From: Escherichia coli
Lineage (GTDB): Bacteria > Pseudomonadota > Gammaproteobacteria > Enterobacterales > Enterobacteriaceae
Assembly: GCF_036507355.1 (NCBI RefSeq)
Contig: NZ_AP027877.1
Length of the DNA stretch: 64,000 nt
Reading direction: 5' to 3' (one strand)
The translations under genes were made by a program, and so were the position numbers. Below are positions 3,951-54,480 of the stretch, one piece after another; positions within the stretch are counted from its first letter, which is position 1; the number at the start of each line of letters is the position of its first letter. The notes beneath the pieces were generated by a model, which saw only the letters and a program-made list of their open reading frames with translations, was not told the DNA's origin and searched no databases.

Positions 3951-5303
3951 ATGAGTTCTTTAAGTCAGGCTGCGAGCCGTGTGGAAAAACGCACGAATGC
4001 TCGTTACTGGATAGTGGTGATGTTGTTTATCGTCACATCCTTCAACTACGGCGACCGCGCTACGCTTTCTATTGCCGGTTCGGAAATGGCCAAAGATATC
4101 GGCCTTGATCCCGTGGGAATGGGCTATGTGTTCTCTGCCTTCTCATGGGCTTATGTTATCGGGCAGATCCCTGGTGGTTGGTTGCTGGATCGTTTTGGTT
4201 CAAAACGCGTCTACTTCTGGTCGATCTTTATCTGGTCGATGTTTACCTTGCTGCAAGGCTTCGTCGATATCTTTAGTGGATTCGGCATTATCGTTGCCCT
4301 GTTTACTCTGCGCTTCCTGGTCGGGCTTGCTGAAGCGCCATCTTTCCCCGGCAACAGTCGCATTGTTGCGGCCTGGTTTCCGGCGCAGGAAAGGGGAACG
4401 GCGGTGTCGATTTTTAACTCCGCTCAATACTTCGCAACGGTGATCTTCGCGCCGATTATGGGCTGGCTGACGCATGAAGTGGGCTGGTCACACGTCTTCT
4501 TCTTTATGGGCGGTCTGGGCATTGTCATCAGCTTTATCTGGTTGAAAGTCATCCACGAGCCAAATCAATATCCGGGGGTAAATCAGAAAGAGCTGGAGTA
4601 CATCGCCGCGGGTGGCGCGCTGATCAATATGGATCAGTAAAACACCAAAGTTAAAGTGCCGTTCAGCGTGAAGTGGGGGCAGATCAAACAACTGCTCGGG
4701 TCACGGATGATGATCGGCGTTTATATTGGTCAGTACTGTATCAACGCCCTGACTTACTTTTTCATTACCTGGTTTCCGGTTTATCTGGTGCAGGTGCGTG
4801 GGATGTCGATTCTGAAAGCGGGCTTTGTGGCTTCCGTTCCGGCGGTTTGCGGTTTTATCGGCGGTGTGCTGGGTGGGATTATTTCCGACTGGCTGATGCG
4901 CCGCACGGGATCGCTGAACATTGCGCGTAAAACACCGATCGTAATGGGCATGTTGCTGTCGATGGTGATGGTGTTCTGCAACTACGTCAACGTTGAGTGG
5001 ATGATCATCGGCTTTATGGCGCTGGCCTTCTTCGGTAAGGGCATTGGGGCGCTGGGTTGGGCAGTAATGGCAGATACCGCACCAAAAGAGATCAGCGGTC
5101 TTTCCGGTGGCCTGTTCAACATGTTCGGTAACATTTCTGGCATCGTCACGCCAATCGCAATTGGTTATATCGTTGGCACGACTGGCTCCTTTAATGGGGC
5201 GCTGATTTATGTTGGTGTTCATGCCTTAATCGCGGTACTGAGCTACCTGGTGCTGGTGGGCGATATCAAGCGTATCGAGCTGAAACCTGTCGCGGGGCAA
5301 TAA
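3951..5303 (+). pseudogene. gudP: Glucarate/galactarate MFS transporter GudP, interrupted by one in-frame TAA at 4638-4640
   Basis: Track ORFs 3951-4640 and 4656-5303 are in the same frame and together give a full 12-TM MFS protein; only one stop codon separates them. Confidence 0.75.
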
Positions 5304-12400: not shown

Positions 12401-14635
12401 ATGGTTGCGGTAAGAAGTGCACATATCAATAAGGCTGGTGAATTTGATCCGGAAAAATGGATCGCAAGTCTGGGTATTACCAGCCAGAAGTCGTGTGAGT
12501 GCTTAGCCGAAACCTGGGCGTATTGTCTGCAACAGACGCAGGGGCATCCGGATGCCAGTCTGTTATTGTGGCGTGGTGTTGAGATGGTGGAGATCCTCTC
12601 GACATTAAGTATGGACATTGACACGCTGCGGGCGGCGCTGTTGTTCCCTCTGGCTGATGCCAACGTGGTCAGCGAAGATGTGCTGCGTGAGAGCGTCGGT
12701 AAGTCGGTCGTTAACCTTATTCACGGCGTGCGTGATATGGCGGCGATCCGCCAGCTGAAAGCGACGCACACTGATTCTGTTTCCTCCGAACAGGTCGATA
12801 ACGTTCGCCGGATGTTATTGGCGATGGTCGATGATTTTCGCTGCGTGGTCATCAAACTGGCGGAGCGTATTGCTCATCTGCGTGAAGTAAAAGATGCGCC
12901 GGAAGATGAACGCGTACTGGCGGCAAAAGAGTGCACTAATATCTACGCGCCGCTGGCGAACCGTCTTGGGATTGGGCAACTGAAATGGGAGCTGGAAGAT
13001 TACTGCTTCCGTTATCTCCACCCGACCGAATATAAACGCATCGCAAAACTGTTGCATGAACGCCGTCTCGACCGCGAACACTATATCGAAGAGTTTGTCG
13101 GCCATCTGCGCGCTGAGATGAAAGCTGAAGGCGTTAAAGCTGAAGTGTATGGTCGTCCGAAACACATCTACAGCATCTGGCGCAAAATGCAGAAAAAGAA
13201 TCTCGCCTTCGATGAGCTGTTTGATGTGCGTGCGGTACGTATTGTCGCCGAGCGTTTACAGGATTGTTATGCCGCACTGGGGATAGTGCACACTCACTAT
13301 CGCCACCTGCCGGATGAGTTTGACGATTATGTCGCTAACCCGAAACCAAACGGTTATCAGTCTATTCATACCGTGGTTCTGGGGCCGGGTGGAAAAACCG
13401 TTGAGATCCAAATCCGCACCAAACAGATGCATGAAGATGCAGAGTTGGGTGTTGCTGCGCACTGGAAATATAAAGAGGGCGCGGCTGCTGGCGGCGCACG
13501 TTCGGGACATGAAGACCGGATTGCCTGGCTGCGTAAACTGATTGCGTGGCAGGAAGAGATGGCTGATTCCGGCGAAATGCTCGACGAAGTACGTAGTCAG
13601 GTGTTTGACGACCGGGTGTATGTCTTTACGCCGAAAGGTGATGTCGTTGATTTACCTGCGGGATCAACGCCGCTGGACTTCGCTTACCACATCCACAGTG
13701 ATGTCGGACACCGCTGTATCGGGGCAAAAATTGGCGGGCGCATTGTGCCGTTCACCTACCAGCTGCAAATGGGCGACCAGATTGAAATTATCACCCAGAA
13801 ACAGCCGAACCCCAGCCGTGACTGGTTAAACCCAAACCTCGGTTACGTCACAACCAGCCGTGGGCGTTCGAAAATTCACGCCTGGTTCCGTAAACAGGAC
13901 CGTGACAAAAACATTCTGGCTGGGCGGCAAATCCTTGACGACGAGCTGGAACATCTGGGGATCAGCCTGAAAGAAGCAGAAAAACATCTGCTGCCGCGTT
14001 ACAACTTCAATGATGTCGACGAGTTGCTGGCGGCGATTGGTGGAGGGGATATCCGTCTCAATCAGATGGTGAACTTCCTGCAATCGCAATTTAATAAGCC
14101 GAGTGCCGAAGAGCAGGACGCCGCCGCGCTGAAGCAACTTCAGCAAAAAAGCTACACGCCGCAAAACCGCAGTAAAGATAACGGTCGTGTGGTGGTTGAA
14201 GGTGTCGGTAACCTGATGCACCACATCGCGCGCTGCTGCCAGCCGATTCCTGGAGATGAGATTGTCGGCTTCATTACCCAAGGACGCGGTATTTCAGTAC
14301 ACCGCGCCGATTGCGAACAACTGGCGGAACTGCGCTCCCATGCGCCAGAACGCATTGTTGACGCGGTATGGGGCGAGAGCTACTCCGCCGGATATTCGCT
14401 GGTGGTCCGCGTGGTGGCTAATGATCGTAGTGGGTTGTTACGTGATATCACGACCATTCTCGCCAATGAGAAAGTGAACGTGCTTGGCGTTGCCAGCCGT
14501 AGCGACACCAAACAGCAACTGGCGACCATCGACATGACCATTGAGATTTACAACCTGCAGGTGCTGGGTCGCGTGCTGGGTAAACTCAACCAGGTGCCGG
14601 ATGTTATCGACGCGCGTCGGTTGCACGGCAGTTAG
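12401..14635 (+). CDS. relA: GTP pyrophosphokinase RelA
   Basis: 744-aa ORF. Confidence 0.95.
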   Translation: MVAVRSAHINKAGEFDPEKWIASLGITSQKSCECLAETWAYCLQQTQGHPDASLLLWRGVEMVEILSTLSMDIDTLRAALLFPLADANVVSEDVLRESVGKSVVNLIHGVRDMAAIRQLKATHTDSVSSEQVDNVRRMLLAMVDDFRCVVIKLAERIAHLREVKDAPEDERVLAAKECTNIYAPLANRLGIGQLKWELEDYCFRYLHPTEYKRIAKLLHERRLDREHYIEEFVGHLRAEMKAEGVKAEVYGRPKHIYSIWRKMQKKNLAFDELFDVRAVRIVAERLQDCYAALGIVHTHYRHLPDEFDDYVANPKPNGYQSIHTVVLGPGGKTVEIQIRTKQMHEDAELGVAAHWKYKEGAAAGGARSGHEDRIAWLRKLIAWQEEMADSGEMLDEVRSQVFDDRVYVFTPKGDVVDLPAGSTPLDFAYHIHSDVGHRCIGAKIGGRIVPFTYQLQMGDQIEIITQKQPNPSRDWLNPNLGYVTTSRGRSKIHAWFRKQDRDKNILAGRQILDDELEHLGISLKEAEKHLLPRYNFNDVDELLAAIGGGDIRLNQMVNFLQSQFNKPSAEEQDAAALKQLQQKSYTPQNRSKDNGRVVVEGVGNLMHHIARCCQPIPGDEIVGFITQGRGISVHRADCEQLAELRSHAPERIVDAVWGESYSAGYSLVVRVVANDRSGLLRDITTILANEKVNVLGVASRSDTKQQLATIDMTIEIYNLQVLGRVLGKLNQVPDVIDARRLHGS

Positions 14636-14650
14636 GCAGAAATTTGCTCG

Positions 14651-14695
14651 TATCTACAATGTAGATTGATATATACTGTATCTACATATGATAGC
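14651..14695. promoter_or_regulatory. mazEF promoter-operator with alternating palindrome
   Basis: tatctacaatgtagattgatatatactgtatctacatatgata immediately upstream of mazE. Confidence 0.6.
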
Positions 14696-14712
14696 GGTTT
14701 GAGGAAAGGGTT

Positions 14713-14961
14713 ATGATCCACAGTAGCGTAAAGCGTTGGGGAAATTCACCGGCGGTGCGGATCCCGGCTACGTTAATGCAGGCGCTCAATCTGAATATTG
14801 ATGATGAAGTGAAGATTGACCTGGTGGATGGCAAATTAATTATTGAGCCAGTGCGTAAAGAGCCCGTATTTACGCTTGCTGAACTGGTCAACGACATCAC
14901 GCCGGAAAACCTCCACGAGAATATCGACTGGGGAGAGCCGAAAGATAAGGAAGTCTGGTAA
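14713..14961 (+). CDS. mazE: Antitoxin MazE
   Basis: 82-aa ORF; TAATG overlap with mazF. Confidence 0.95.
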
Positions 14962-15296
14962 TGGTAAGCCGATACGTACCCGATATGGGCGATCTGATTT
15001 GGGTTGATTTTGACCCGACAAAAGGTAGCGAGCAAGCCGGACATCGTCCGGCTGTTGTCCTGAGTCCGTTCATGTACAACAACAAAACAGGTATGTGTCT
15101 GTGTGTTCCTTGTACAACGCAATCAAAAGGATATCCGTTCGAAGTTGTTTTATCCGGTCAGGAACGTGATGGCGTAGCGTTAGCTGATCAGGTAAAAAGT
15201 ATCGCCTGGCGGGCAAGAGGAGCAACGAAGAAAGGAACGGTTGCCCCAGAGGAATTACAACTCATTAAAGCCAAAATTAACGTACTGATTGGGTAG
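14961..15296 (+). CDS. mazF: mRNA interferase toxin MazF
   Basis: 111-aa ORF. Confidence 0.95.
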   Translation: MVSRYVPDMGDLIWVDFDPTKGSEQAGHRPAVVLSPFMYNNKTGMCLCVPCTTQSKGYPFEVVLSGQERDGVALADQVKSIAWRARGATKKGTVAPEELQLIKAKINVLIG

Positions 15297-15367
15297 GTGT
15301 TACTAACTCACTTCTATTCTGGTCACAGGTTTCCACCTGACAGACCCGCAATTTTCAGGACATTCTA

Positions 15368-16159
15368 ATGAATCAAATCGACCGTTTGCTCACTATTATG
15401 CAGCGCCTGCGCGACCCGGAAAACGGCTGCCCGTGGGATAAAGAGCAGACATTTTCTTCTATTGCGCCTTACACCCTTGAAGAAACCTACGAGGTGCTGG
15501 ACGCTATTGCCCGCGAAGACTTTGACGATCTGCGCGGTGAACTCGGCGATCTGCTGTTCCAGGTGGTGTTTTACGCACAAATGGCCCAGGAAGAAGGGCG
15601 CTTTGATTTTAATGATATTTGCGCCGCGATTAGCGATAAATTAGAACGCCGTCATCCACATGTTTTTGCTGACGGTTCTGCCGGAAACAGCCGCGAAGTT
15701 CTCGCCCGTTGGGAGGAGATCAAAACCGAAGAGCGCGCGCAGAAAGCGCAGCATTCGGCGCTGGACGATATTCCTCGTAGTTTACCCGCCTTAATGCGTG
15801 CGCAAAAAATCCAGAAACGTTGCGCCAACGTTGGCTTCGATTGGACGACGCTTGGTCCGGTAGTCGATAAAGTCTACGAAGAGATCGACGAGGTGATGTA
15901 CGAAGCGCGGCAGGCTGTTGTCGACCAGGCTAAACTGGAGGAGGAAATGGGGGACCTGCTGTTTGCCACGGTCAATCTGGCTCGTCATTTAGGGACAAAA
16001 GCGGAAATCGCATTGCAAAAAGCGAACGAAAAATTCGAGCGTCGTTTTCGCGAAGTGGAGCGTATTGTTGCCGCGCGTGGACTGGAAATGACAGGTGTTG
16101 ACCTCGAAACAATGGAAGAAGTCTGGCAACAGGTAAAACGGCAGGAAATTGATCTCTAA
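15368..16159 (+). CDS. mazG: Nucleoside triphosphate pyrophosphohydrolase MazG
   Basis: 263-aa ORF. Confidence 0.9.
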   Translation: MNQIDRLLTIMQRLRDPENGCPWDKEQTFSSIAPYTLEETYEVLDAIAREDFDDLRGELGDLLFQVVFYAQMAQEEGRFDFNDICAAISDKLERRHPHVFADGSAGNSREVLARWEEIKTEERAQKAQHSALDDIPRSLPALMRAQKIQKRCANVGFDWTTLGPVVDKVYEEIDEVMYEARQAVVDQAKLEEEMGDLLFATVNLARHLGTKAEIALQKANEKFERRFREVERIVAARGLEMTGVDLETMEEVWQQVKRQEIDL

Positions 16160-19863: not shown

Positions 19864-20766
19864 TTACCATCTTCCTGACGCGCCGCCACCGCCGGATGAA
19901 CCGCCGCCACCGCTGAAATTGTCATTGTCGAAAGAGGATGAAGAGGAAGAAGACGATGACGAATGCCAGGAGGCCGAGTTGCTTCTTTCGTAGCGTGACG
20001 GTCGGTTTGCACTACGCATTGAATCACGCACCTTTCTGCCGAAAGGTGTGAAAGCGATAGCTACGACCAGGAATGGAGTGGCGAAACATAATAATGTGGC
20101 AAGAATTCCCCAGCTCCCGCTATATCCAGCGATGGGAAGTACAAAGGCCAGTATTATGGCAGCAAAGCAAATCACTCCCAGCGTTTTGATATATCCTCTG
20201 GCAGAAATAAACGTCAGTACTATCGCCCAGACTAACAGAGCCCACCAACCGCTAAAGGGTAAAGGATGATCGGGCGATGTATTATTGACTAAATCATTTC
20301 CTGATAGTCGGGTTTCAATATCACCAATACCTTGTTGCAAGCCGACAGCAAGGTCGCCCTTTTTAAACGCTGGAATAATACTGTTGCGTATAATTTGCCC
20401 GGACTGCGCATCCGTCAGAATACCCTCAAGTCCGTAGCCAATTTCAATATGTACTGTATGATCTTGCTAGGCAACTACCAGTAAAATACCGTCATCAAGA
20501 TTCTTATGACCGGGCTGCCAACGCTCGAATACCCGCGTTGCGTACTGCTCGATGGTTTCGTCGCCTGTTGTATCAACCACTAACACGACCAACTGTGCGT
20601 GTTTTTTTTGTGTCAGGGCTTTAATCTGGTTGGTCAGGGTGTTTACTTCGCTGTTTGTTAATGTGCCGGTTAAGTCATTCACATACTTGGGTGATTCAGG
20701 TACTGGAATTTGTGTGGCAAACACAGATGAACAGAAGAAAGCCGTAAGGAAGATAAAATTTCGCAT
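19864..20766 (-). pseudogene. ygcG: TPM-domain protein YgcG homolog, interrupted by one in-frame TAG at 20467-20469
   Basis: Track ORFs 20467-20796 and 19864-20340 share a frame; translation through the stop continues the TPM domain (…LLVVA*QDHTVHIEIGYGLEG…); signal peptide start MRNFIF, Gly/Ser-rich C-tail. Confidence 0.7.
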
Positions 20767-20779
20767 AGAACTTCCCCGC

Positions 20780-21400
20780 TTAATGAGCATTAGCATTCTG
20801 GCTAAAATCTATTGTTGGGGCTTTACTTACTGCGGCGACATCATCCGGCAAATAATTTTTCTTTGGTGTGTAATCCATGACCTTTGCGGTTAATACAGCG
20901 GGGAATTTGCGGATAGTGACATTATATTGTTCAATGGCTTTAATATATCTTCCTCGCGCAACGGCAATTCTATTCTCACTTCCTTCGAGCTGTACCATTA
21001 AGTTTTGATAGAGCTCTTGAGCCTTTAACTCAGGGTAACGCTCACTAATTATCGTTAACTGACCGAGAGTGCGAGTCACCTGCGCCTGGGCCTGTTGCCA
21101 GGCTTGTAATTTTTGTGCATCTCCGGGAGCTTGCTGAAGATCGCTGCTGGCGCGATTAGCCTGGCTACGAGCCAATGTTACGGCTTCCAAAACGTCTTTT
21201 TCATGGTTGGAATAACCTTTAATACTGGCGACAAGATTAGGAATAAGATCGGCGCGACGTTGATATTGATTTAATACCTCAGACCAGGAGGCGTTAACCT
21301 GCTCATCATAGGTTTGAATATCGTTATATCCACAGCCTGATAAATTGAAAATAAATATAATTAAGATGAATATCCTGAGCATGTTTAAATCCTTTTTCAT
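20780..21400 (-). CDS. LemA family protein, probable lipoprotein (alternative start 21382, MLRIF…LSGC lipobox)
   Basis: 206-aa ORF; stop 14 bp upstream of the ygcG start, so the two look co-transcribed; low GC. Confidence 0.7.
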   Translation of the reverse strand: MKKDLNMLRIFILIIFIFNLSGCGYNDIQTYDEQVNASWSEVLNQYQRRADLIPNLVASIKGYSNHEKDVLEAVTLARSQANRASSDLQQAPGDAQKLQAWQQAQAQVTRTLGQLTIISERYPELKAQELYQNLMVQLEGSENRIAVARGRYIKAIEQYNVTIRKFPAVLTAKVMDYTPKKNYLPDDVAAVSKAPTIDFSQNANAH

Positions 21401-22226: not shown

Positions 22227-22565
22227 TTAAACATTTATAAGCGTTATAAATGGGTGGAACCTGTAAAGACTTCTACTCATTTATATTCTTTGTCGCCTCT
22301 GAAAACTCCTCCATTTTACCCATCCAGGGCTAATCATTAGCATTCTCTACAAATTCTGTGGTGTTAATTTTTTGTTGGAGTGAAAATTATTGCGGTAAAG
22401 TTTGGTAGATTTTAGTTTGTATAGAATTATTTTAAATATTTGCCTTTTTAATCAATGGGTTAAGTGCTCTTTAACATAATGGATGTGTTGTTTGTGTGAT
22501 ACTGTAAAGTTGGTAGATTGTGACTGGCTTAAAAAATCATTAATTAATAATAGGTTATGTTTAGA

Positions 22566-22777
22566 GAGTTCCCCGCGCCAGCGGGGATAAACCGGAGAGA
22601 GTCCAGTATCAATCCCGCGATCCGCAGAGTTCCCCGCGCCAGCGGGGATAAACCGCCGTTGCGGATCTTGAGTAGTGCCACGTCACCGAGTTCCCCGCGC
22701 CAGCGGGGATAAACCGGGTACAAAAGAGGCCCCATTCTGGCAGGGCTCGAGTTCCCCGCGCCAGCGGGGATAAACCA
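22566..22777 (+). CRISPR. Type I-E CRISPR array: 4 repeats of 29 bp (GAGTTCCCCGCGCCAGCGGGGATAAACCG) and 3 spacers of 32 bp, AT-rich leader upstream
   Basis: Repeats at 22566, 22627, 22688 and 22749 (61-bp period); last repeat ends in A; degenerate repeat remnant near 22867-22888. Confidence 0.95.
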
Positions 22778-23244
22778 CCATATAACCCGTTATCTCTTTC
22801 TCAAGTTTTTATATTAGCAGTACTTGTAATAAGCAACATATCCACGTAACACCTCATGTTCAAAATAGTTCCCCATGCCAGATAAGTTCACAATTATCGA
22901 TACAAAAAATTAAATTTAATCAAAGTGTTATTTGTATAATTCTTAAGCCGTTAAGAAATTTTAATCTATTATTTTTTTAATATTAATTAATGCCTGTTAA
23001 TTTTTTCTTTAGTATAACAGTGTATTTTTTAAGCTTGTTATTCATTGATTAAGTAATAAATCTGGAAATTTGTCTTTGTTTTGAGGCTAATGAGTGGTTT
23101 TACATAACCGCCTCTATACGCTGTTGATGAATAGTTCTTATGAATAAAGATATCCAGTTCATACTTTAAGTGAAAATTGATAAAGTGCGATTCGTATTGT
23201 CTTTTATTCTAAAGACATCGAGTGTAGTTAATATTCCTTGTAAA

Positions 23245-23368
23245 AACAGGGATAAACCGAACTAGTTAAAGTTTTTATTATGTTCCCTGCATCAGCGGGG
23301 ATAAACCGGACTTGTTATCATTTTTTAAGTTGTCGAACTTATGTTCCCCGCGCCAGCGGGGATAACCA
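23245..23368 (+). CRISPR. Degenerate, vestigial CRISPR array (2-3 mutated repeats, one 32-bp spacer)
   Basis: Partial repeat ending ggataaaccg at 23259, mutated repeats at 23280-23308 and 23341-23368 flanking a 32-bp spacer. Confidence 0.7.
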
Positions 23369-23414
23369 TTCAGGTATGTTCAGGCCGGGCAGTTTCCCGC
23401 CCGGTTTTCCTCAC

Positions 23415-24919: not shown

Positions 24920-26197
24920 TTACTTGCTGCTAGCTATTGCGGGGGCGCTATCAGCAGTACGAATTTTTTGGAACAGCAAAAAGGTAAAGACGATCACCAT
25001 GCCGAGTGCCGCCATGCCCATCAGCCACATGTTGCGGTAGGCTTCTGCTGCGGGCAGGGTGTCCTGCCAGTGGCCGATAATCGGGTAAACGAAGACATCC
25101 GGCAGGAATCCAATCACCGAACAAATACCTACCGTGGTGCCCATAATGTAAGACGGTGTTCTCGCTTCGCCAGGGCAGGCCCAGTACAGCCCGCGTGAGG
25201 CGTAACAGGTGAATCCCAGCAGTAAAATCAGGCCAATCCCCATCGCGACCGATTGCGGGTTAGAGTTCGTGACGAGCAGGGCAGTTAACGCCAGCAGGCC
25301 GAGTACGGAAAGGATTTGGATCACGCGGGTAGGGGATTTCACTTTGCTGTAGGTGGTGATTATGCCGCCAAGTGGGCCGCACAGCGCGCGGAATATTTTG
25401 TTGATCACAATCCCCATGTAGCTCGCCGCCACCAGCGACATGCCGTACATTTCGGTCAGATAGTTGGTGGAGTAACTCAGAATGGCGTAGATGGTGAAGA
25501 CACCAAAAATCACCATGCTGCAATACCAGGTGGTGCTGATGCGCAAAACGGCCAGGATGTCGCTAAGCTGGAATGACTGTTTTTCTTCGTTATTGGCACT
25601 ACGCAGGTTATTGTTATCGCTAACAAAAAACCAGCACAGAAGCCCCAACAAGATGTAAACCACACTGTAGATGATAATGACCGTTTTCAGGCTGGCGCTG
25701 TCATCCGGTGCAAAGCGAGAAAAGACCCACATGGTAAACACCGCCAGCGACATTACACCGACGCCGCGCAGCCCTTCCATCCAGCCCATAATTTTCCCTT
25801 GCTCGCTATGATCGCCAAGCAACGATGCGGCTTTAATCGACACCGACCACAGCATTAAAATCGTTGTTATCGCAAAGGCGACCTGAATACAGAGCATTAC
25901 CCACAGCGGTGGATACGTTGCCATTAACAGACCCAGTAATCCGGTAATGATCATCGCGGAAGTAATCATTTTGCGGTGTGAAAATTTATCGGCAATAACG
26001 CCGCTGGGGGCATAAAGAATAATAGCCGCAATACCAAAGGTACTCATTATTAAACCTATCTCGGTATTGCTGAATCCCATAAATTTCGCCATGGGAATTT
26101 GATAAATATAACGTAAATAAGCCAGGTCGAAACTAACGCCGCCGCTAAAACTAATTATCGCGAGGGTTATCCAACGGCGATATGAGTTGTGTTGCAT
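24920..26197 (-). CDS. yqcE: MFS transporter YqcE
   Basis: 425-aa multi-TM ORF. Confidence 0.85.
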   Translation of the reverse strand: MQHNSYRRWITLAIISFSGGVSFDLAYLRYIYQIPMAKFMGFSNTEIGLIMSTFGIAAIILYAPSGVIADKFSHRKMITSAMIITGLLGLLMATYPPLWVMLCIQVAFAITTILMLWSVSIKAASLLGDHSEQGKIMGWMEGLRGVGVMSLAVFTMWVFSRFAPDDSASLKTVIIIYSVVYILLGLLCWFFVSDNNNLRSANNEEKQSFQLSDILAVLRISTTWYCSMVIFGVFTIYAILSYSTNYLTEMYGMSLVAASYMGIVINKIFRALCGPLGGIITTYSKVKSPTRVIQILSVLGLLALTALLVTNSNPQSVAMGIGLILLLGFTCYASRGLYWACPGEARTPSYIMGTTVGICSVIGFLPDVFVYPIIGHWQDTLPAAEAYRNMWLMGMAALGMVIVFTFLLFQKIRTADSAPAIASSK

Positions 26198-26440
26198 ATC
26201 GTATTCCCATTTGTAATAGACAAAAAAAAGAGAAAAGTAAGCCGCCCTTTCAGGTGGATTACTTTTCTCAGGTCTCTAGTAATTGAAATAATAAATAACA
26301 TGGAAAGCAGAGGTGTTGTGTGAGAGTAATCACGCTTCTGCTTTTTAAAACTATTTGATAATGCGAATATCACACTGTGATTACGATCACATTAGCAGTT
26401 ATGTCCTTATGCTAAAAATTATCTCCAGTTACCAGAGATA

Positions 26441-27571
26441 ATGAGAAAGGTAACTGAGAATATGCAGGCGACGGCGCAATGTGGCGTTCCGCTGGAGGTG
26501 CTGGAAAACGCGTTGCGTGAAAAAGGTTACACCACGGGGCATTCTCCGCAGTCAAAGCCGCTGGCGCAGATGGGCGGCCTGGTAGCAACCCGCAGTATCG
26601 GGCAGTTCTCCACACTCTACGGCGCAATCGAAGATATGGTCGTTGGTCTGGAAGCAGTATTGGCTGATGGCACCGTGACACGTATTAAAAACGTGCCACG
26701 CCGCGCGGCTGGCCCGGACATTCGTCACATCATCATCGGCAACGAAGGTGCATTGTGCTATATCACTGAAGTAACAGTGAAAATCTTTAAATTCACCCCG
26801 GAAAACAACCTCTTCTACGGCTATATCCTGGAAGACATGAAAACCGGCTTCAACATCCTGCGTGAAATCATGGTGGAAGGGTATCGTCCGTCGATCGCTC
26901 GTTTGTATGACGCTGAAGATGGCACCCAACACTTCACGCATTTTGCCGACGGAAAATGCGTGCTGATCTTTATGGCTGAAGGTAACCCTCGCATTGCGAA
27001 GGCGACGGGCGAAGGGATTGCGGAAATCGTTGCCCGCTACCCGCAATGCCAACGCGTGGACAGCAAGCTGATCGAAACCTGGTTTAACAACCTGAACTGG
27101 GGACCGGATAAAGTGGCTGCCGAACGTGTGCAGATCCTCAAAACCGGCAACATGGGCTTTACTACCGAAGTGTCCGGCTGCTGGAGCTGCATCCACGAAA
27201 TCTACGAAAGCGTTATTAACCGTATTCGTACCGAGTTCCCGCACGCCGACGACATCACTATGCTGGGCGGTCACTCCTCTCATAGCTATCAGAACGGCAC
27301 CAACATGTACTTCGTCTACGACTACAACGTTGTCAACTGTAAGCCGGAAGAGGAAATCGACAAGTACCACAATCCGCTCAACAAAATCATTTGCGAAGAA
27401 ACCATTCGCCTCGGTGGTTCGATGGTGCACCACCACGGTATCGGTAAACATCGCGTTCACTGGAGCAAGCTGGAACACGGCAGCGCGTGGGCGTTGCTGG
27501 AAGGGCTGAAAAAGCAATTCGATCCTAACGGCATTATGAATACGGGTACTATCTATCCGATTGAAAAATAA
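26441..27571 (+). CDS. ygcU: FAD-linked oxidase YgcU homolog, apparently lacking about 100 N-terminal residues of the FAD-binding domain
   Basis: 376-aa ORF begins inside the PCMH-type FAD-binding region; the preceding in-frame sequence is closed by stops. Confidence 0.6.
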   Translation: MRKVTENMQATAQCGVPLEVLENALREKGYTTGHSPQSKPLAQMGGLVATRSIGQFSTLYGAIEDMVVGLEAVLADGTVTRIKNVPRRAAGPDIRHIIIGNEGALCYITEVTVKIFKFTPENNLFYGYILEDMKTGFNILREIMVEGYRPSIARLYDAEDGTQHFTHFADGKCVLIFMAEGNPRIAKATGEGIAEIVARYPQCQRVDSKLIETWFNNLNWGPDKVAAERVQILKTGNMGFTTEVSGCWSCIHEIYESVINRIRTEFPHADDITMLGGHSSHSYQNGTNMYFVYDYNVVNCKPEEEIDKYHNPLNKIICEETIRLGGSMVHHHGIGKHRVHWSKLEHGSAWALLEGLKKQFDPNGIMNTGTIYPIEK

Positions 27572-37956: not shown

Positions 37957-38219
37957 ATATTGCCGGATAAATTAAACGCCTCTGTCAGAAATGATGGGGG
38001 CGTTTTTATTTTGCGAGCAGCATTCCTGATTTTAAACGTGAACGCCGCTGGAAGAATTATCAGGTATAGAATGGCGTCGGGTGCTTGAGGCTGTCTGGCG
38101 TTAAGCATTCGCGAGGTTCCAGATGGACAAAAGCCCCAGGCGATATTTCTATCAACCTGAGGCTCGCGTTCGAACGTAGCAATTCGGATGTTAGTCTCTT
38201 CTTTGCAGGGAGGCAAGAC

Positions 38220-38372
38220 ATGCTAACAAAATATGCCCTTGTGGCAATCATAGTACTGTGTTGTACAGTACTGGGATTCACGCTCATGGTAGGCGACTCG
38301 TTATGTGAGTTGAATATCAGAGAGCGTGGTATGGAGTTTAAGGCAGTTCTCGCTTACGAATCGAAGAAGTAG
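38220..38372 (+). CDS. Hok/Gef-family type I toxin (50 aa)
   Basis: [50 protein letters not shown]: single TM segment then the SLCE..IR…AYES.K signature; AGGGAGG RBS 7 nt upstream. Confidence 0.75.
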
Positions 38373-38761
38373 CCACCACGTGGGGGTAAAACCCCGCGTA
38401 TTGAATTGTGATGGTTTGGTCTCCTGCACCCTTTTTTAAATTTATATTTTTTATGTGAATATATTGTCTCTATTTATTATTATGAATTTCAAATGAAAAT
38501 CATAAATTTATTCACAATATAAATGTTTTATTGGCTGATATATATCACAGATAATTTTTAAAATATGCGTAAATATCCTTTAAGTTTACTGAAGGATAAA
38601 AATATTGTGACTTTCTTTGATTTCTGGGGAAAAACCCGACGCGACGAGAAAGAAGGGGGTGACGACTATCACCTTCTTTGCTGGCATTCGCTGGATGTGG
38701 CCGCGATGGGCTATTTAATGGTTAAAAGAAATTGCTTCGGGCTGGCGGTAATGACTCCAAC

Positions 38762-39265
38762 TTATTGATAGTGTTTTATGTTCAGATAATGCCCGATGAC
38801 TTTGTCATGCAGCTCCACCGATTTTGAGAACGACAGCGACTTCCGTCCCAGCCGTGCCAGGTGCTGCCTCAGATTCAGGTTATGCCGCTCAATTCGCTGC
38901 GTATATCGCTTGCTGATTACGTGCAGCTTTCCCTTCAGGCGGGATTCATACAGCGGCCAGCCATCCGTCATCCATATCACCACGTCAAAGGGTGACAGCA
39001 GGCTCATAAGACGCCCCAGCGTCGCCATCGTGCGTTCACCGAATACGTGCGCAACAACCGTCTTCCGGAGCCTGTCATACGCGTAAAACAGCCAGCGCTG
39101 GCGCGATTTAGCCCCGACATAGCCCCACTGTTCGTCCATTTCCGCGCAGACGATGACGTCACTGCCCGGCTGTATGCGCGAGGTTACCGACTGCGGCCTG
39201 AGTTTTTTAAGTGACGTAAAATCGTGTTGAGGCCAACGCCCATAATGCGGGCTGTTGCCCGGCAT
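38762..39265 (-). CDS. insB: IS1 InsB (expressed as InsAB' by a -1 frameshift)
   Basis: 167-aa ORF overlapping insA in the -1 frame. Confidence 0.9.
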
Positions 39266-39459
39266 CCAACGCCATTCATGGCCATATCAATGATTTTCTG
39301 GTGCGTACCGGGTTGAGAAGCGGTGTAAGTGAACTGCAGTTGCCATGTTTTACGGCAGTGAGAGCAGAGATAGCGCTGATGTCCGGCGGTGCTTTTGCCG
39401 TTACGCACCACCCCGTCAGTAGCTGAACAGGAGGGACAGCTGATAGAAACAGAAGCCAC
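39184..39459 (-). CDS. insA: IS1 InsA
   Basis: 91-aa [26 protein letters not shown]…. Confidence 0.9.
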
Positions 39460-41451
39460 TGGAGCACCTCAAAAACACCATCATACACTAAATCAGTAAG
39501 TTGGCAGCATCACCCGGGCTGGCTGATTATTTTCGTCAATTAGGGATTTCTGACAAGGAACAGGCGGCTCAATTTTTCGCCTGGTTGTTGTGCTGGCACG
39601 ATATTGGAAAATTTGCCCGCTCATTTCAGCAACTTTACCTGCACCCACAACTCAAGGTTCCGGAAGGCGCAAGAAAGAATTACGAAAAGATCTCTCATTC
39701 AACGCTGGGCTACTGGTTGTGGCATCATTATTTAAGTGAATGCGAAGAATTGCTTCCTGCCTCTTCACTCTCTACTCGCAAACTTAAACGTGTAATAGCG
39801 ATGTGGATGCCCATGACTACCGGGCATCATGGTCGGCCCCCTGACCGTATTGATGAACTGGATAATTTTCTGCCTGAAGACAAAGTTGCCGCGCGAGATT
39901 TTCTCCTTGAAATCAAGGCACTGTGTCCGCTCATAGAGATTCCCACATTCTGGGATAATGACGAGGGAGTTGAACTTTTAAAACAACTTTCCTGGTATAT
40001 CTCTGCAACAGTCGTACTTGCAGACTGGACGGGTTCGTCAACGCGATTTTTTCCACGCGTCGCACACCCAATGGATATTAAAGATTACTGGCAGAAAACT
40101 TTAGTTCAGGCTCAAAACGCCTTAACCGTCTTTCCTCCAAAAGCAGAAACCGCACCTTTCACCGGAATTAATACGCTGTTTCCTTTTATTGAGCACCCGA
40201 CACCATTACAGCAAAAGGTGCTGGATCTGGATATCAGCCAGCCAGGGCCACAGTTATTTATTCTGGAAGACGTGACTGGCGCAGGTAAAACAGAAGCGGC
40301 GCTTATCCTGGCGCACAGGTTGATGGCTGCGAGGAAAGCACAGGGTTTGTTTTTTGGCCTGCCAACAATGGCAACGGCCAATGCCATGTACGATCGGCTG
40401 GTCAAAACCTGGCTTGCTTTCTATTCGCCAGAGTCCCGCCCCAGCCTGGTGCTGGCACACAGTGCCCGCACATTAATGGACCGCTTTAATGAATCACTCT
40501 GGTCCGGTGATTTAGTCGGGTCAGAAGAACCGGATGAACAAGCGTTCAGTCAAGGATGTGCAGCCTGGTTTGCCGACAGTAACAAGAAGGCTTTACTGGC
40601 TGAAATTGGCGTCGGCACGCTGGATCAGGCGATGATGGCGGTGATGCCGTTCAAACATAATAATCTGCGGCTTCTGGGGCTGAGTAACAAAATCCTGCTG
40701 GCTGATGAGATCCACGCCTGTGACGCTTACATGTCATGCATTCTTGAAGGGCTGATCGAGCGGCAGGCGCGTGGTGGAAACAGCGTCATTTTGCTTTCTG
40801 CTACGTTATCCCAACAGCAGCGCGACAAACTCGTCGCCGCCTTTGCGCGTGGCACAGAGGGCCAGCAAGAAGCTCCGTTCCTTGAAAAGGATGATTACCC
40901 CTGGCTGACGCATGTCACGAAATCCGATGTGAACTCACACCGGGTAGCGACGCGCAAAGACGTTGAGCGTAGCGTCAGCGTGGGTTGGCTTCATAGTGAA
41001 CAAGAGAGTATTGCGCGTATCGAATCGGCGGTAAGTCAGGGAAAATGCATCGCCTGGATCCGCAATTCTGTCGATGACGCTATTAAGGTTCATCGTCAGC
41101 TGCTTGCCCGCGGCGTCATTCCCGCTTCCAGCCTTTCACTCTTTCATAGCCGCTTTGCTTTTAGCGATCGCCAGCGAATCGAAACGGAAACGCTGGCACG
41201 CTTTGGTAAAAATTGTAATTTAAAAAGATCATCGCAAGTCATTGTTTGTACACAAGTAATTGAGCAAAGTGTGGATATTGACCTGGACGAAATGATCTCC
41301 GACCTTGCCCCCATTGATTTGCTGATCCAGCGAGCGGGGCGATTACAGCGACATATCCGCGATATTAATGGTCAGTTAAAGCGTGACGGAAAAGACGAGC
41401 GTTCCCCTCCTGAATTGCTGATTCTGGCCCCCGTCTGGGACGACGCTCCTG

Positions 41452-41781
41452 GTGACGAATGGTTCGGCAGTGCCATGCGTACGCGCCTTTACAGAGGCCG
41501 CGCTTAAAGTCTCACCAACCGGAAAACAAAACAGCTTTGCCAGCCGTGCCTACGCCTCCTGGGCGCTGGCGGAAAAAGGCACTGTTCAACCGCGTTCTCT
41601 GGCGGCGGCTTTCTATGAACCCATTAATGGTACCCGTCAGTTAGATGTGGCGGTGCAGCGTATTACAACGCTTCGCGAAAACATGAATACGGTCTACGAA
41701 CAGAAGACTGAATGCGCAAGTTTTGACGTGATGAACAAACAGGGAAGCATGAAGGACGTACTGGACTTTATCTGCGCGTAA
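41452..41781 (+). pseudogene. 3' remnant of a cas gene, most plausibly the end of cas7/casC fused out of frame to cas3
   Basis: 109-aa frame ending 10 bp before the cas5 ATG, the position casC occupies in an intact I-E operon; the alternative reading is a frameshifted cas3 tail. Confidence 0.4.
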
Positions 41782-41791
41782 GGGGCGGCTT

Positions 41792-42973
<1,182 letters not shown>

Positions 42974-43069: not shown

Positions 43070-43281
43070 GTGTTCCCGGCGCCAGCGGGGATAAACCGAC
43101 GAGGGGCTCGTTATTCGGGAAATTACAAAAGTGTTCCCCGCGCCAGCGGGGATAAACCGGCCCAGGGATTTGTTCAATCCAGCGTGCCGCTGTGTTCCCC
43201 GCATCAGCGGGGATAAACCGGGCGCACTGGATGCGATGATGGATATCACTTAGAATTCCCCGCCCCTGCGGTAGAACTCCC
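43070..43281 (+). CRISPR. Type I-E CRISPR array next to cas2: 3 repeats GTGTTCCC(C/G)GCGCCAGCGGGGATAAACCG plus a degenerate terminal repeat, 3 spacers of 32 bp
   Basis: Repeats at 43070, 43131 and 43192, degenerate repeat at 43253; 61-bp period; AT-rich leader at 42974-43069. Confidence 0.95.
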
Positions 43282-43301: not shown

Positions 43302-44339
43302 TCAAGACGCCTTCGCCAACTCTTTCACCAGAGGTAGCATTATCCGCATAACGTCACGGCAGCGACGTTCTATTCTTCCAGGAAGTGCCTTATCAATATG
43401 CTGTTGATTATCCAGTCTTACGTCATGCCAGCTATTTCCCGCAGGGAATGCGGCTGTTTTTGCGCGTTGCTGATAACCATCCTTATTCCCAAGATTCCAG
43501 TTAGTCGCTTCCACCGAAAGTACAGCAATGCCCGCTTTGTCGAATATTTCTGCGTCATTACAACACCCAGTGCCTTTCGGATAATTTTTATTCAAACCCG
43601 GATTGGTCGTTGCGGCAATTCCATGACTACGCGCAATTGCCAGCGCCCTGTCGCGCGTTAATTTCCTTACTGCTTCAGGTGTTTTTACGCCACTGTTGAA
43701 ATACAGCTTATCGCCAACGATCAGATTATCGAGATTAATCACCAATAAAGTATTTTTCTTTTCGGTATCACTCATGCGCTTGAGGAAATTCTCAGCGCCT
43801 AATTTCCCTTCTTCTTCGCCACTGGTTGCTACAAAACGAATGCCATATTCGGTTGGCGTATTTTTCAGGCGTTCTGCCAGCTCCAGCATGACACCTAAAC
43901 CTGCGGCATTATCATCCATTCCTTGTAACGTCAGCCCGCCGAGATTGGCATCTGCATCTGCGTCGCTCTGCGGGGCATAGGTATCCAGATGCGCCATAAT
44001 AATGATCTGCTGCGGCGCTTTGCCTTCATGAGCGGCAATCACCGTACTTCCCGTCACGTTGTGCCAGTTTTTGCGGTTATCGCGGGCGGTATAAATATAT
44101 CGGCTATTAAACGTACGAATATCACTGCGGTAACCCATTTGCTGAAACTGTTGCCGAATATAATCGGCAGATAACATTTCTGCAGGAGTTCCGGTCATGC
44201 GTCCCGGAAAGAAAGTGGCAATATGTCGCGCCTGTGTATTGGCAAAATCGCCAGGTTTAGGTGACGAGGCGTGTACGGGGAGAATAAAGCATACGCCGAG
44301 CGCCAGGGCAGCGGTACGGTGGCGCAATGCGGAAAACAT
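43302..44339 (-). CDS. iap: Alkaline phosphatase isozyme conversion aminopeptidase
   Basis: 345-aa ORF with signal peptide. Confidence 0.85.
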   Translation of the reverse strand: MFSALRHRTAALALGVCFILPVHASSPKPGDFANTQARHIATFFPGRMTGTPAEMLSADYIRQQFQQMGYRSDIRTFNSRYIYTARDNRKNWHNVTGSTVIAAHEGKAPQQIIIMAHLDTYAPQSDADADANLGGLTLQGMDDNAAGLGVMLELAERLKNTPTEYGIRFVATSGEEEGKLGAENFLKRMSDTEKKNTLLVINLDNLIVGDKLYFNSGVKTPEAVRKLTRDRALAIARSHGIAATTNPGLNKNYPKGTGCCNDAEIFDKAGIAVLSVEATNWNLGNKDGYQQRAKTAAFPAGNSWHDVRLDNQQHIDKALPGRIERRCRDVMRIMLPLVKELAKAS

Positions 44340-44590
44340 AGTGAGTCCTTAAATACCATGCAAATTTTTTTACCGCCATAGTATGAAACTGCCGCTGCGC
44401 TAAAACAATTTCAAATCTTCCTAAACGCCCGAAATCCGGTGCCTTAAGCACTTTTTGATATTAGCTTTGCCAAATCGTTATTCCGTTAAGGAACTACTCA
44501 TTCTAATTGGTAATTTCATTCGTTCTCTTACGCTCCCTATAGTCGAAACATCTGATGGCAAGAAAATAGCGGTATTGCAAAGGAACGGTT

Positions 44591-45499
44591 ATGGATCAAA
44601 TACGACTTACTCACCTGCGGCAACTGGAGGCGGAAAGCATCCACATTATTCGCGAGGTGGCGGCAGAATTCTCAAATCCGGTGATGCTCTACTCTATCGG
44701 TAAAGATTCCAGCGTCATGCTGCATCTGGCGCGCAAGGCGTTTTATCCAGGTACGCTGCCTTTCCCGTTGCTGCATGTCGATACCGGCTGGAAATTCCGC
44801 GAGATGTATGAGTTCCGCGATCGTACGGCGAAAGCCTACGGCTGCGAGCTGCTGGTGCATAAAAACCCGGAAGGCGTGGCGATGGGGATTAATCCATTCG
44901 TGCACGGCAGCGCGAAACATACCGATATTATGAAGACCGAAGGCCTGAAGCAGGCGCTGAATAAATACGGTTTTGATGCCGCCTTCGGTGGTGCGCGCCG
45001 CGACGAAGAGAAATCCCGTGCTAAAGAGCGTATCTACTCTTTCCGTGATCGCTTCCATCGCTGGGACCCGAAAAATCAGCGCCCGGAGCTGTGGCACAAC
45101 TATAACGGGCAGATTAACAAAGGCGAAAGCATCCGCGTTTTCCCGCTCTCTAACTGGACCGAGCAGGATATCTGGCAATACATCTGGCTGGAAAATATCG
45201 ACATTGTTCCGTTGTATCTCGCTGCGGAACGTCCGGTTCTGGAACGCGACGGTATGTTGATGATGATTGATGACAACCGTATCGACCTGCAACCGGGCGA
45301 AGTGATTAAAAAACGGATGGTGCGTTTCCGTACGCTGGGCTGCTGGCCGCTGACCGGTGCGGTGGAGTCAAATGCACAAACGCTGCCGGAGATCATCGAA
45401 GAGATGCTGGTTTCCACCACCAGTGAACGTCAGGGGCGCGTGATTGACCGCGACCAGGCTGGTTCTATGGAGCTGAAAAAACGTCAGGGGTATTTTTAA
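44591..45499 (+). CDS. cysD: Sulfate adenylyltransferase subunit 2
   Basis: 302-aa ORF. Confidence 0.95.
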
Positions 45500-45500
45500 G

Positions 45501-46928
45501 ATGAACACCGCACTTGCACAACAAATCGCCAATGAAGGCGGCGTCGAAGCCTGGATGATTGCGCAACAACATAAAAGCCTGCTGCGTTTTCTGACCTGTG
45601 GTAGCGTCGATGACGGCAAAAGTACCCTGATTGGTCGTCTGCTGCACGATACCCGCCAAATCTATGAAGATCAGCTCTCATCGCTGCATAACGACAGCAA
45701 ACGACACGGTACCCAGGGCGAGAAACTGGATTTGGCGTTGCTGGTGGATGGCCTGCAAGCTGAACGCGAACAGGGTATTACTATCGACGTGGCTTACCGT
45801 TATTTCTCTACCGAGAAGCGTAAATTTATTATCGCCGACACCCCCGGGCACGAGCAGTATACCCGCAATATGGCGACCGGCGCCTCAACGTGTGAGCTGG
45901 CGATCTTATTGATCGACGCCCGTAAAGGCGTGCTCGATCAAACCCGTCGTCACAGTTTTATCTCCACGCTGCTGGGGATCAAACATCTGGTCGTAGCGAT
46001 CAACAAAATGGATCTGGTGGATTACAGTGAAGAGACATTCACCCGCATTCGTGAAGACTACCTGACTTTCGCCGAACAGTTACCTGGCAATCTGGATATT
46101 CGCTTTGTGCCGCTCTCTGCGCTGGAAGGCGACAACGTGGCTTCGCAAAGTGAAAGTATGCCGTGGTACAGCGGTCCGACACTGCTCGAAGTGCTGGAAA
46201 CCGTGGAGATCCAGCGAGTGGTGGATGTCCAGCCAATGCGCTTCCCGGTGCAGTACGTTAACCGCCCAAATCTCGATTTTCGTGGCTACGCCGGAACGCT
46301 GGCATCCGGTCGCGTGGAAGTCGGGCAACGTGTAAAAGTGCTGCCCTCTGGTGTGGAATCAAACGTCGCGCGGATCGTGACTTTTGATGGCGATCGCGAA
46401 GAAGCCTTTGCCGGAGAAGCGATCACCTTGGTGCTGACGGATGAGATCGATATCAGCCGTGGTGATCTGCTGCTGGCGGCAGACGAAGCGTTACCAGCTG
46501 TGCAGAGCGCGTCGGTGGATGTGGTATGGATGGCGGAACAGCCGCTTTCCCCGGGCCAGAGTTATGACATCAAAATTGCCGGTAAGAAGACGCGTGCTCG
46601 TGTTGATGGCATTCGTTATCAGGTTGATATTAATAACCTTACCCAACGCGAAGTTGAAAACCTGCCGCTGAACGGCATCGGCTTGGTGGATCTCACTTTT
46701 GACGAGCCACTGGTGTTAGATCGTTATCAGCAAAACCCGGTTACCGGTGGGCTGATTTTTATCGATCGCCTGAGCAATGTGACCGTAGGTGCCGGTATGG
46801 TGCATGAGCCAGTTAGCCAGGCAACTGCTGCGCCATCTGAATTTAGTGCATTCGAACTGGAATTGAATGCCCTGGTTCGCCGCCACTTTCCACACTGGGG
46901 CGCGCGCGATTTGCTGGGGGATAAATAA
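45501..46928 (+). CDS. cysN: Sulfate adenylyltransferase subunit 1 (GTPase)
   Basis: 475-aa ORF with GTP-binding motifs. Confidence 0.95.
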
Positions 46929-47533
46929 TGGCGCTGCATGACGAAAACGTCGTCTGGCATAGCCATCCGGTCACTGTGCAACAACGCGAGCTACACCACG
47001 GTCATCGTGGTGTAGTGCTGTGGTTTACCGGCCTCTCCGGGTCCGGTAAATCAACGGTCGCCGGGGCGCTGGAGGAGGCGTTACATAAACTCGGCGTCAG
47101 TACGTATCTGCTGGATGGCGATAATGTTCGCCACGGATTATGCAGCGATCTCGGTTTTAGCGATGCCGATCGTAAAGAGAATATCCGTCGCGTCGGTGAA
47201 GTGGCGAATTTGATGGTTGAAGCCGGACTGGTGGTGCTGACCGCATTTATCTCGCCACACCGCGCCGAACGCCAGATGGTTCGCGAACGCGTAGGAGAAG
47301 GGCGCTTTATCGAAGTGTTTGTCGATACGCCGCTGGCGATTTGCGAAGCCCGCGATCCAAAAGGCTTATATAAGAAAGCGCGTGCCGGTGAACTGCGCAA
47401 CTTTACGGGAATAGATTCCGTTTACGAAGCGCCTGAATCGGCAGAAATTCATCTCAATGGTGAACAATTAGTAACAAATTTGGTACAGCAATTATTAGAT
47501 CTGTTGAGACAGAACGATATTATCAGATCCTGA
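46928..47533 (+). CDS. cysC: Adenylyl-sulfate kinase
   Basis: 201-aa ORF with P-loop GLSGSGKST. Confidence 0.95.
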
Positions 47534-47582
47534 GACACCACCGGGTTTCCATGCCCGGTTCGTCAAAGTAACAGGATCAAAT

Positions 47583-47906
47583 ATGCGTAATAGCCATAAC
47601 ATTACACTAACAAATAACGACAGCCTTACTGAGGATGAAGAAACCACATGGTCACTGCCTGGTGCCGTGGTCGGTTTTATCTCCTGGTTATTTGCGCTGG
47701 CGATGCCGATGTTGATTTATGGCTCTAACACGCTGTTCTTCTTTATCTACACCTGGCCTTTCTTTCTTGCGCTGATGCCCGTCGCGGTAGTGGTGGGGAT
47801 TGCGCTGCATTCATTGATGGACGGAAAGCTACGCTACAGTATTGTTTTCACCCTGATGACAGTAGGCATTATGTTTGGCGCACTGTTTATGTGGCTACTG
47901 GGCTAA
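47583..47906 (+). CDS. ygbE: Inner membrane protein YgbE
   Basis: 107-aa hydrophobic ORF. Confidence 0.8.
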   Translation: MRNSHNITLTNNDSLTEDEETTWSLPGAVVGFISWLFALAMPMLIYGSNTLFFFIYTWPFFLALMPVAVVVGIALHSLMDGKLRYSIVFTLMTVGIMFGALFMWLLG

Positions 47907-48099
47907 TTTGTACTTTCCCGTCTCCTCTGTTCATAATTCAAACCGTAACTAATAATGAGATTATGTTCTGCACGCCCTGGGTATACGTAACAATGGACAA
48001 ATGTGGTACATTTGCCCGCGTTGTCGCGGTATCCCCAACAGAGGATGTAGAGTCGTCTTCGGATGCATGGGATGATGATGCCGTTTTTCAGGGGGCAGG

Positions 48100-48411
48100 A
48101 TGGGTAAACTAACGCTGCTGTTGCTGGCTATTCTGGTCTGGCTACAGTATTCGCTGTGGTTCGGTAAGAACGGTATACATGACTATACCCGCGTCAATGA
48201 TGATGTGGCGGCACAGCAAGCTACAAACGCGAAACTTAAAGCGCGAAACGATCAACTTTTTGCCGAAATTGACGATCTCAATGGCGGCCAGGAGGCGCTC
48301 GAAGAGCGTGCGCGTAATGAACTCAGCATGACCAGGCCGGGCGAAACGTTTTATCGTCTGGTGCCTGACGCGTCGAAGCGCGCACAGTCTGCGGGGCAAA
48401 ACAATCGATAA
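48100..48411 (+). CDS. ftsB: Cell division protein FtsB
   Basis: 103-aa ORF with TM segment and coiled coil. Confidence 0.9.
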
Positions 48412-48429
48412 ATCAGCCCGGGAATTAAC

Positions 48430-50645: not shown

Positions 50646-50665
<20 letters not shown>
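49616..50665 (+). CDS. truD: tRNA pseudouridine(13) synthase TruD
   Basis: 349-aa ORF. Confidence 0.9.
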
Positions 50666-52027
<1,362 letters not shown>

Positions 52028-52166
52028 AACGTGAGGAAATACCTGGATTTTTCCTGGTTATTTTGCCGCAGGTCAGCGTATCGTGAACATCTTTTCCAGT
52101 GTTCAGTATGGTGCCCTGCACGGTAATTATGTCACTGGTTATTAACCAATTTTTCCTGGGGGATAA

Positions 52167-53306: not shown

Positions 53307-53368
53307 ATCGGCGGAACCAGGCTTTTGCTTGAATGTTCCGTCAAGGGATCACGGGTAGGAGCCACCTT

Positions 53369-54361: not shown

Positions 54362-54378
54362 GTAAGCATCTGTCAGAA

Positions 54379-54412: not shown

Positions 54413-54480
54413 TGTTTGGGAAGCTTGTGTTTTTGTCGCCTGGATAAGACACGTCAGCGTCCTACCCGGCAATTTGCATC

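Follow-up and report, generated by a model that had tools for sequence, protein, structure and literature searches.

A Sequence-Intact mazEF Toxin–Antitoxin Cassette in the relA–mazG Interval of an Escherichia coli Chromosome

Introduction

The closest described relative of the locus treated here is the mazE–mazF pair of Escherichia coli K-12 MG1655 (chpAI–chpAK; b2783–b2782), which stands in the relA–mazEFG cluster and encodes proteins of 82 and 111 amino acids. MazF cleaves RNA at ACA and is held in a sandwich complex with MazE, which is in turn subject to turnover by ClpAP and Lon; the toxin also cuts its own mazEF mRNA at ACA, with two sites counted in mazE and nine in mazF, and the MazF variant E24A is inactive (PMC5888573). 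The operator is made up of three MazE sites (c, a and b), and MazF enhances the DNA binding (PMC4333400). A further layer of control comes from the antisense RNA aMEF, which raises the output of both MazE and MazF and has its promoter inside mazF (PMC8749433). The physiological role of mazEF is disputed in the literature, where it has been described as a device for stress bacteriostasis, programmed death or phage defence, or as a selfish cassette.

Other modules share the fold family of the toxin (PF02452), the DNA-binding fold of the antitoxin (PF04014) and the same two-gene layout, among them chpBIK (chpS–chpB) and the plasmid systems pemIK and kis–kid (parD). These are only distantly related to the mazEF genes described below, and their genomic locations differ.

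The present analysis concerns a stretch of 64,000 nucleotides of E. coli DNA, referred to throughout as the window, in which the initial annotation had recognised an undamaged, canonical type II toxin–antitoxin module between relA and mazG. The feature is almost certainly the native chromosomal mazEF (chpA) type II toxin–antitoxin cassette of a chromosome of the E. coli/Shigella lineage, at its customary relA–mazG site and intact as far as the sequence can tell, and nothing counts against the mazEF identification. It is an ordinary, well-studied module, already known and correctly annotated, and no discovery is claimed for it.

The mazEF Genes and Their Neighbours

The coordinates of the features discussed here are collected in Table 1. 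The reference for comparison was the corresponding region of E. coli K-12 MG1655, which was aligned to the window at the nucleotide level and also searched by tblastn with all the K-12 proteins of the region.

Table 1. Features of the mazEF locus, with positions in the window.
Feature	Position	Strand	Basis or remark
relA (GTP diphosphokinase, 744 aa), upstream neighbour, intact	12401–14635	+	ORF list
Region corresponding to antisense RNA aMEF (K-12 ameF, b4844)	14602–15001	−	projected from MG1655 annotation 2911051–2911450
mazEF operator "cab" with alternating palindrome	14647–14696	+	exact match to published operator oligonucleotide
Palindrome arms	14650–14658, 14659–14666, 14678–14687	+	repeat search
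ATATAT palindrome, "a" site	14669–14674	+	between outer arms
Shine–Dalgarno-like GAGGA	14701–14705	+	ends 7 nt 5' of mazE ATG; read from sequence
mazE, antitoxin gene (82 aa)	14713–14961	+	ATG start; ORF list
TAATG stop/start overlap of mazE and mazF	14959–14963	+	shared A at 14961
mazF, endoribonuclease toxin gene (111 aa)	14961–15296	+	ATG start; ORF list
mazF–mazG spacer	15297–15367	+	
mazG (nucleoside triphosphate pyrophosphohydrolase, 263 aa), downstream neighbour, intact	15368–16159	+	ORF list

Two short genes lie in the same orientation, the antitoxin gene leading, and the stop codon of the first overlaps the start codon of the second. The TAA of mazE occupies 14959–14961 and the ATG of mazF 14961–14963, a one-base overlap that bears out the TAATG junction first noticed, and on which the sequence and the list of open reading frames agree. 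Re-translation turned up no internal stops and no frameshifts in either gene. The span originally marked out, 14651–15296, opens in the left palindrome arm and closes with the final base of the mazF stop codon.

The matches of both products are well beyond what chance would give. In phmmer searches, MazE matched the solved E. coli chains 1MVF_D and 1UB4_C of the PDB at 100% identity over its full length (E = 4.8e-52), and MazF matched 3NFC_A, likewise at 100% identity (E = 1.9e-73), with the remaining E. coli MazF entries matching at E values of about 1e-73. The domain models agree, with Pfam PF04014 (MazE_antitoxin) scoring 52.9 bits over MazE residues 6–51 and PF02452 (PemK/MazF toxin) 84.8 bits on MazF, for which the cutoff is 23.1. 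More specific still are the NCBIfam equivalogs: MazE passes NF007312 at 196.2 bits (cutoff 113; aligned 1–82 of 82) and MazF passes NF007386 at 227.4 bits (cutoff 120; aligned 1–111 of 111). In MazF, residues E24, R29 and T52 are reported to be of functional importance, and positions 24, 29 and 52 of the window protein are E, R and T, all present; K7, R8 and R16 are likewise present in MazE.

The alignment to K-12 mazEF that had been proposed as a check gave no differences over the 249 nucleotides of mazE and four over the 336 nucleotides of mazF (15038, 15050, 15068 and 15239). All four fall at third codon positions and are synonymous, leaving both proteins 100% identical to those of K-12; with both reading frames complete, the description of the module as canonical and undamaged holds. 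The window shares with MG1655 the TAATG overlap, the 50-bp operator, both protein sequences, the mazE DNA and the RelA protein, together with the order, orientation and lengths of the genes in the cluster. It differs in the four synonymous mazF changes, an extra G and three substitutions ahead of mazG, and six substitutions in MazG.

The arrangement around the cassette is also that of K-12, in keeping with the initial annotation, which had called it intact. The gene order is rlmD, relA, mazE, mazF, mazG, pyrG and eno, with mazEF between relA and mazG in the K-12 order and orientation, and both flanking genes are complete. RelA is covered over residues 1–744 at 100% identity to K-12 (tblastn), scores 1678 bits against NCBIfam NF008124 and carries the Pfam domains HD_4, RelA_SpoT, TGS and ACT; relA has 56 nucleotide differences from K-12 that leave the protein unaltered. 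MazG is 97.7% identical to its K-12 counterpart over residues 1–263 (tblastn), with six substitutions (A30S, T31S, S103G, E106G, S109R and Q117E) and scores of 417 bits against TIGR00444 and 368 bits against NF007113. The extra G in the spacer between mazF and mazG lies right after the mazF stop codon, and the three substitutions lie at 15363–15366, adjoining the mazG start, where the bases found in the window are common to the aligned genomes that have no mazEF. Thousands of E. coli genomes in RefSeq carry the same annotation of relA, mazE, mazF and mazG at this locus, and of the 4748 matches located in E. coli records every one is chromosomal and none is on a plasmid.

A scan of the plus strand from relA to mazG, including the spacer after mazF, found no site resembling an intrinsic terminator. 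This absence is compatible with the published co-transcription of relA–mazEFG and is no evidence for it. Rfam and tRNA scans returned no family or tRNA within the mazEF locus, and Tandem Repeats Finder returned no tandem repeats at a score of at least 80. An open reading frame of 146 codons with a TTG start is present on the minus strand at 14682–15122, opposite mazE and the 5' portion of mazF, where it overlaps the projected aMEF; it is probably a by-product of coding constraint on the sense strand.

The Operator and the Antisense RNA

The initial annotation had placed an alternating-palindrome operator ahead of mazE, and both the geometry of the repeats and an exact match to the published operator support this. 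The central arm, ATGTAGAT (14659–14666), is fully complementary to ATCTACA upstream (14652–14658) and also to ATCTACAT downstream (14680–14687), while the outer arms form a perfect 9-nt direct repeat, GTATCTACA, with starts 28 nt apart at 14650 and 14678. The sequence of the "cab" operator oligonucleotide was taken from Zorzini et al. 2015 (PMC4333400), with its last base left off, and the resulting 50 nucleotides matched 14647–14696 with no mismatches, as against none of 100 shuffles that did so. The operator is identical to that of K-12, and the sole difference from K-12 in the spacer between relA and mazE, at 14638, lies upstream of it. Somewhere in or next to this same 50-nt interval lie, we take it, the published mazEF promoters. 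A scan with consensus promoter elements yielded weak candidates only, each matching 9 of 12 positions, and their frequency (3 sites, against 1.3 ± 1.3 expected) was about that of chance; they were set aside as positions for P2 or P3.

The region corresponding to aMEF was located by homology only, through a gap-free alignment of the window to MG1655. Read from 15001 to 14602, the region has only two differences from K-12, at 14629 and 14638. Upstream of the annotated 5' end we infer a putative aMEF promoter with the hexamers TTGCTC and CAAAAT and a 17-nt spacer. The synonymous substitution at 15038 falls about 3 nt upstream of, and thus outside, the TTGCTC that would form its −35 hexamer.

Divergence from K-12 and Decay Elsewhere in the Window

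Divergence from K-12 along the 11 kb around the locus is patchy, with most 200-nt bins at 0–1.5%, and this pattern, as read from the alignment, is that of the usual E. coli recombination mosaic. Two patches reach about 8%, one in relA (12839–13238), where the differences are almost entirely synonymous, and one in mazG (15439–15838), and both look like imported recombination tracts. The interval 14639–15296 has 4 differences in 658 nucleotides, or 0.6%. The idea that mazEF is unusually conserved relative to its flanks was rejected; the genes sit in the ordinary background of this patchy 11-kb divergence.

E. coli isolate 23S01245-7 (NZ_OZ197100.1) is 100.0% identical to the window over 14236–15767, including the divergent mazG allele, yet elsewhere it differs: its I-E cas operon is full, an IS4 adjoins eno, and ygcN–ygcE are lacking. 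Because the identity over 14236–15767 is complete and the surrounding gene content is different, the common stretch points to a shared recombination tract only. Among complete RefSeq E. coli genomes, none exceeded 98.0% identity to the window over 1–25000 and none exceeded 99.5% over 44000–54400, and the lineage of the window is thus not represented in that collection; an origin of the Shigella type is a plausible guess.

The contrast that had been drawn between mazEF and decayed loci elsewhere in the window proved well founded, as a nonsense codon in gudP, a deletion in ygcW/ygcU and a cas locus gutted and interrupted by an IS1 were all found. In gudP (glucarate/galactarate transporter; 3951–5303, plus strand), codon 230 is CAA in K-12 and TAA here (4638–4640), which splits the gene into open reading frames of 229 and 215 amino acids, whereas its neighbours gudX and gudD are undamaged. 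An exact-protein look-up with the truncated GudP fragment returned no match. A deletion of 1253 bp relative to K-12 (2899081–2900333), at about 26197–26455 of the window with its junction at 26455, takes out ygcW together with, going by the coordinates, about the first 113 codons of ygcU, leaving a ygcU remnant of 376 amino acids at 26441–27571. Compared with GCA_905398585.1, a sister assembly reached through the truncated Cas1 and 99.98% identical to the window over the cas region, the IS1 (768 bp, 38747–39514; insB at 38762–39265 on the minus strand) shows a 9-bp target duplication. The element lies inside and disrupts a variant type I-E cas3 whose product is only 31.6% identical to K-12 Cas3. 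Remnants of the cas genes extend over 39515–42961, where casA–E are missing, a Cas7 fragment is left, cas2 is retained and cas1 (41820–42683) lacks its N-terminus.

Several other features of the window were recorded in passing. The CRISPR arrays are short only, with three 29-nt repeats by iap (43070–43220), four repeats between queE and ygcE (22565–22777) and a degenerate trio further on (23230–23369). A second toxin–antitoxin locus, of another type, is marked by an Rfam sok match (RF01794, 105 bits) at 38079–38235 on the plus strand, between cysH and the IS1, and a 50-amino-acid Hok/Gef gene has been called at the corresponding place in GCA_905398585.1. The small RNA CsrB has a full-length Rfam match (384 bits) at 1536–1895 on the plus strand, in its K-12 position between syd and yqcC. 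On the minus strand at 19864–21400, a divergent set stands in for the yqcG/ygcG of K-12 and includes a LemA-family open reading frame (20780–21400), a TPM-like stretch (20257–20766) that is 45% identical to YgcG, and an open reading frame (19864–20340) with a weak, sub-cutoff YxzE-like bacteriocin match. In the variable region between rpoS and pphB/mutS (54400–57343), ygbI–ygbN are absent, a UbiX-like flavoprotein (55035–55628) and a UbiD-family decarboxylase (55628–57055) are carried, and identity to K-12 falls to 92.7% in pphB.

Presence and Absence of the Cassette across E. coli

The distribution of the cassette was followed with a query made of 400 nt of relA, the cassette itself and 400 nt of mazG, searched against 5426 complete E. 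coli genomes. The query was matched in 5425 of these and covered to at least 80% in 4415, and some 1010 genomes, about a fifth, do not cover the mazEF cassette. The cassette is therefore dispensable in nature. Eight of the low-coverage genomes were sampled; their coverage was 54–55%, in two pieces spanning 894–895 bp as compared with 1532, and relA and mazG only were annotated.

The structure of the empty site was taken from three aligned genomes (FDAARGOS_1289, 21F61 and WL297), and the fraction of the roughly 1010 that have exactly such a site is an extrapolation from those sampled. In these three, relA and mazG lie about 95 nt apart. After the relA stop codon come about 40 unrelated nucleotides with a hairpin of 12-bp stem and then about 20 nt of diverged sequence, and homology to the window returns about 35 nt before the mazG start. 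Thus the 3' end of relA and the last ~35 nt before mazG are homologous to the window, whereas in place of the ~680 bp between them (roughly 14636 to 15313/15335, from the operator through mazE and mazF into the 3' spacer) these genomes have about 40–58 nt that contain the hairpin. Since all three genomes have the hairpin sequence in place of the whole ~680 bp, the operator, mazE, mazF and the proximal part of the 3' spacer act as a single insertion/deletion unit. In line with this, Fraikin et al. 2020 state that in the many strains without mazEF the relA–mazG pair is an undisturbed bicistronic operon (PMC7167474). No flanking direct repeats, which would be a sign of transposition, were seen by eye at the borders of the cassette in the empty-site alignment.

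The hairpin of the empty site has the form GCUGGAUAUGGC-GUCA-GCCGUAUCCAGC followed by a U-rich stretch, and the 111 nt containing it fold at −37.7 kcal/mol (z = −4.7). This hairpin may be a terminator or attenuator of relA that the mazEF cassette replaces. Both the presence/absence polymorphism and aMEF are already in the literature.

Inferred Mechanism and the Question of Role

The way in which the module would operate in this strain can be outlined from the assayed system. The two genes would be transcribed together, from promoters within the operator or beside it, and their translation would probably be coupled through the TAATG. A MazE dimer would bridge two MazF dimers (MazF2–MazE2–MazF2) and so block the RNase, while the N-terminal domain of MazE would bind operator sites c, a and b with an affinity raised by MazF, the complex of the two thereby repressing its own transcription. 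MazE would be degraded by ClpAP and Lon, and when synthesis stops, free MazF would be expected to cut single-stranded RNA at ACA, with lower translation and growth arrest as the outcome. The mazEF mRNA would itself be cleaved at its ACA sites, and aMEF would positively tune the output of both proteins. The expectation of ACA cleavage, neutralisation by MazE, ClpAP/Lon proteolysis and autorepression in this strain comes from the 100% identity to the proteins and operator that have been assayed (PMC5888573, PMC4333400).

What such a module does for the cell is another matter. One reading of its role takes the cassette for a selfish or dispensable element inserted into the relA–mazG operon, kept because its loss is costly (addiction) or because it contributes modestly to phage defence, and not for a stringent-response or programmed-death device. 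The clean polymorphism, with 4415 carriers among 5426 genomes, and the three aligned empty sites with relA and mazG about 95 nt apart and the hairpin in place both speak for it. So does the undisturbed relA–mazG operon of strains without mazEF, along with the finding that deletion of mazEF has no reported fitness defect and that multiple toxin–antitoxin deletions bring no fitness defect under stress (PMC7167474), and native mazEF gives moderate protection against RNA phages (PMC12151602). On the other side, the sequence of the window cannot discriminate between roles, and the absence of amino-acid changes together with the 0.6% divergence over 14639–15296 fits purifying selection. Because the divergence along the region is patchy, however, the low divergence of mazEF would fit recent recombination equally well. 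We put the chances of this account of the role slightly short of even.

A more elaborate proposal, in which mazEF has been kept free of amino-acid change amid gene loss by active selection, whether for phage defence or through addiction, and in which the loss of the ACA at codon 93 and the change at 15038 measurably retune autoregulation relative to K-12, is improbable. The loss itself is real. The synonymous change at 15239 turns the ACA of Thr93 into ACG and removes one of the ACA self-cleavage sites of K-12, so that the K-12 count of 2 in mazE and 9 in mazF becomes 2 and 8 in the window. With eight mazF sites left, no qualitative effect is expected.

The same differences could be turned to another use, namely the suggestion that the module is sequence-intact and yet silent or mis-regulated in this strain, through the lost ACA site, the 15038 change, or trans factors (Lon, ClpAP, Fis) encoded outside the window. 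Such a reading can draw on the four synonymous mazF differences, one of which removes an ACA and one of which sits beside the putative −35 hexamer of aMEF, and on the decay of other loci in the window. It has to contend with an operator, ribosome-binding site, gene overlap and pair of proteins that are all those of K-12, with the eight ACA sites left in mazF, and with an aMEF promoter whose function tolerates poor sequence conservation (PMC8749433), and we consider it very unlikely.

That the genes belong instead to another MazF-family module, the chpBIK paralogue or an integrated plasmid copy of pemIK or kis–kid, has next to no chance of being right: the shared PemK/MazF fold does give weak matches to ChpB (55 bits), ChpS (34.6 bits) and Kid (1M1F, E = 7.6e-9), but neither the ChpB model NF007320 (55.2 bits against a cutoff of 129) nor the ChpS model NF008463 (34.6 against 101) is passed, and such an identity is refuted by the MazE and MazF equivalogs passed at full length, the identity to the PDB chains, the 100% identity to K-12 in tblastn, the relA–mazG synteny and the chromosomal location of every one of the 4748 matches in E. 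coli.

Conclusions

The native mazEF cassette that we recognise here is a textbook locus, and its confirmation shows that such a locus can be recognised from raw sequence with correct coordinates, which is of small value for discovery. Within this genome, mazEF is pristine while neighbouring non-essential loci decay. As no fitness defect has been reported upon its deletion (PMC7167474), "intact" should therefore not be equated with "important". For the window as a whole, mazEF serves as a firm annotation anchor in the series rlmD–relA–mazEFG–pyrG–eno.
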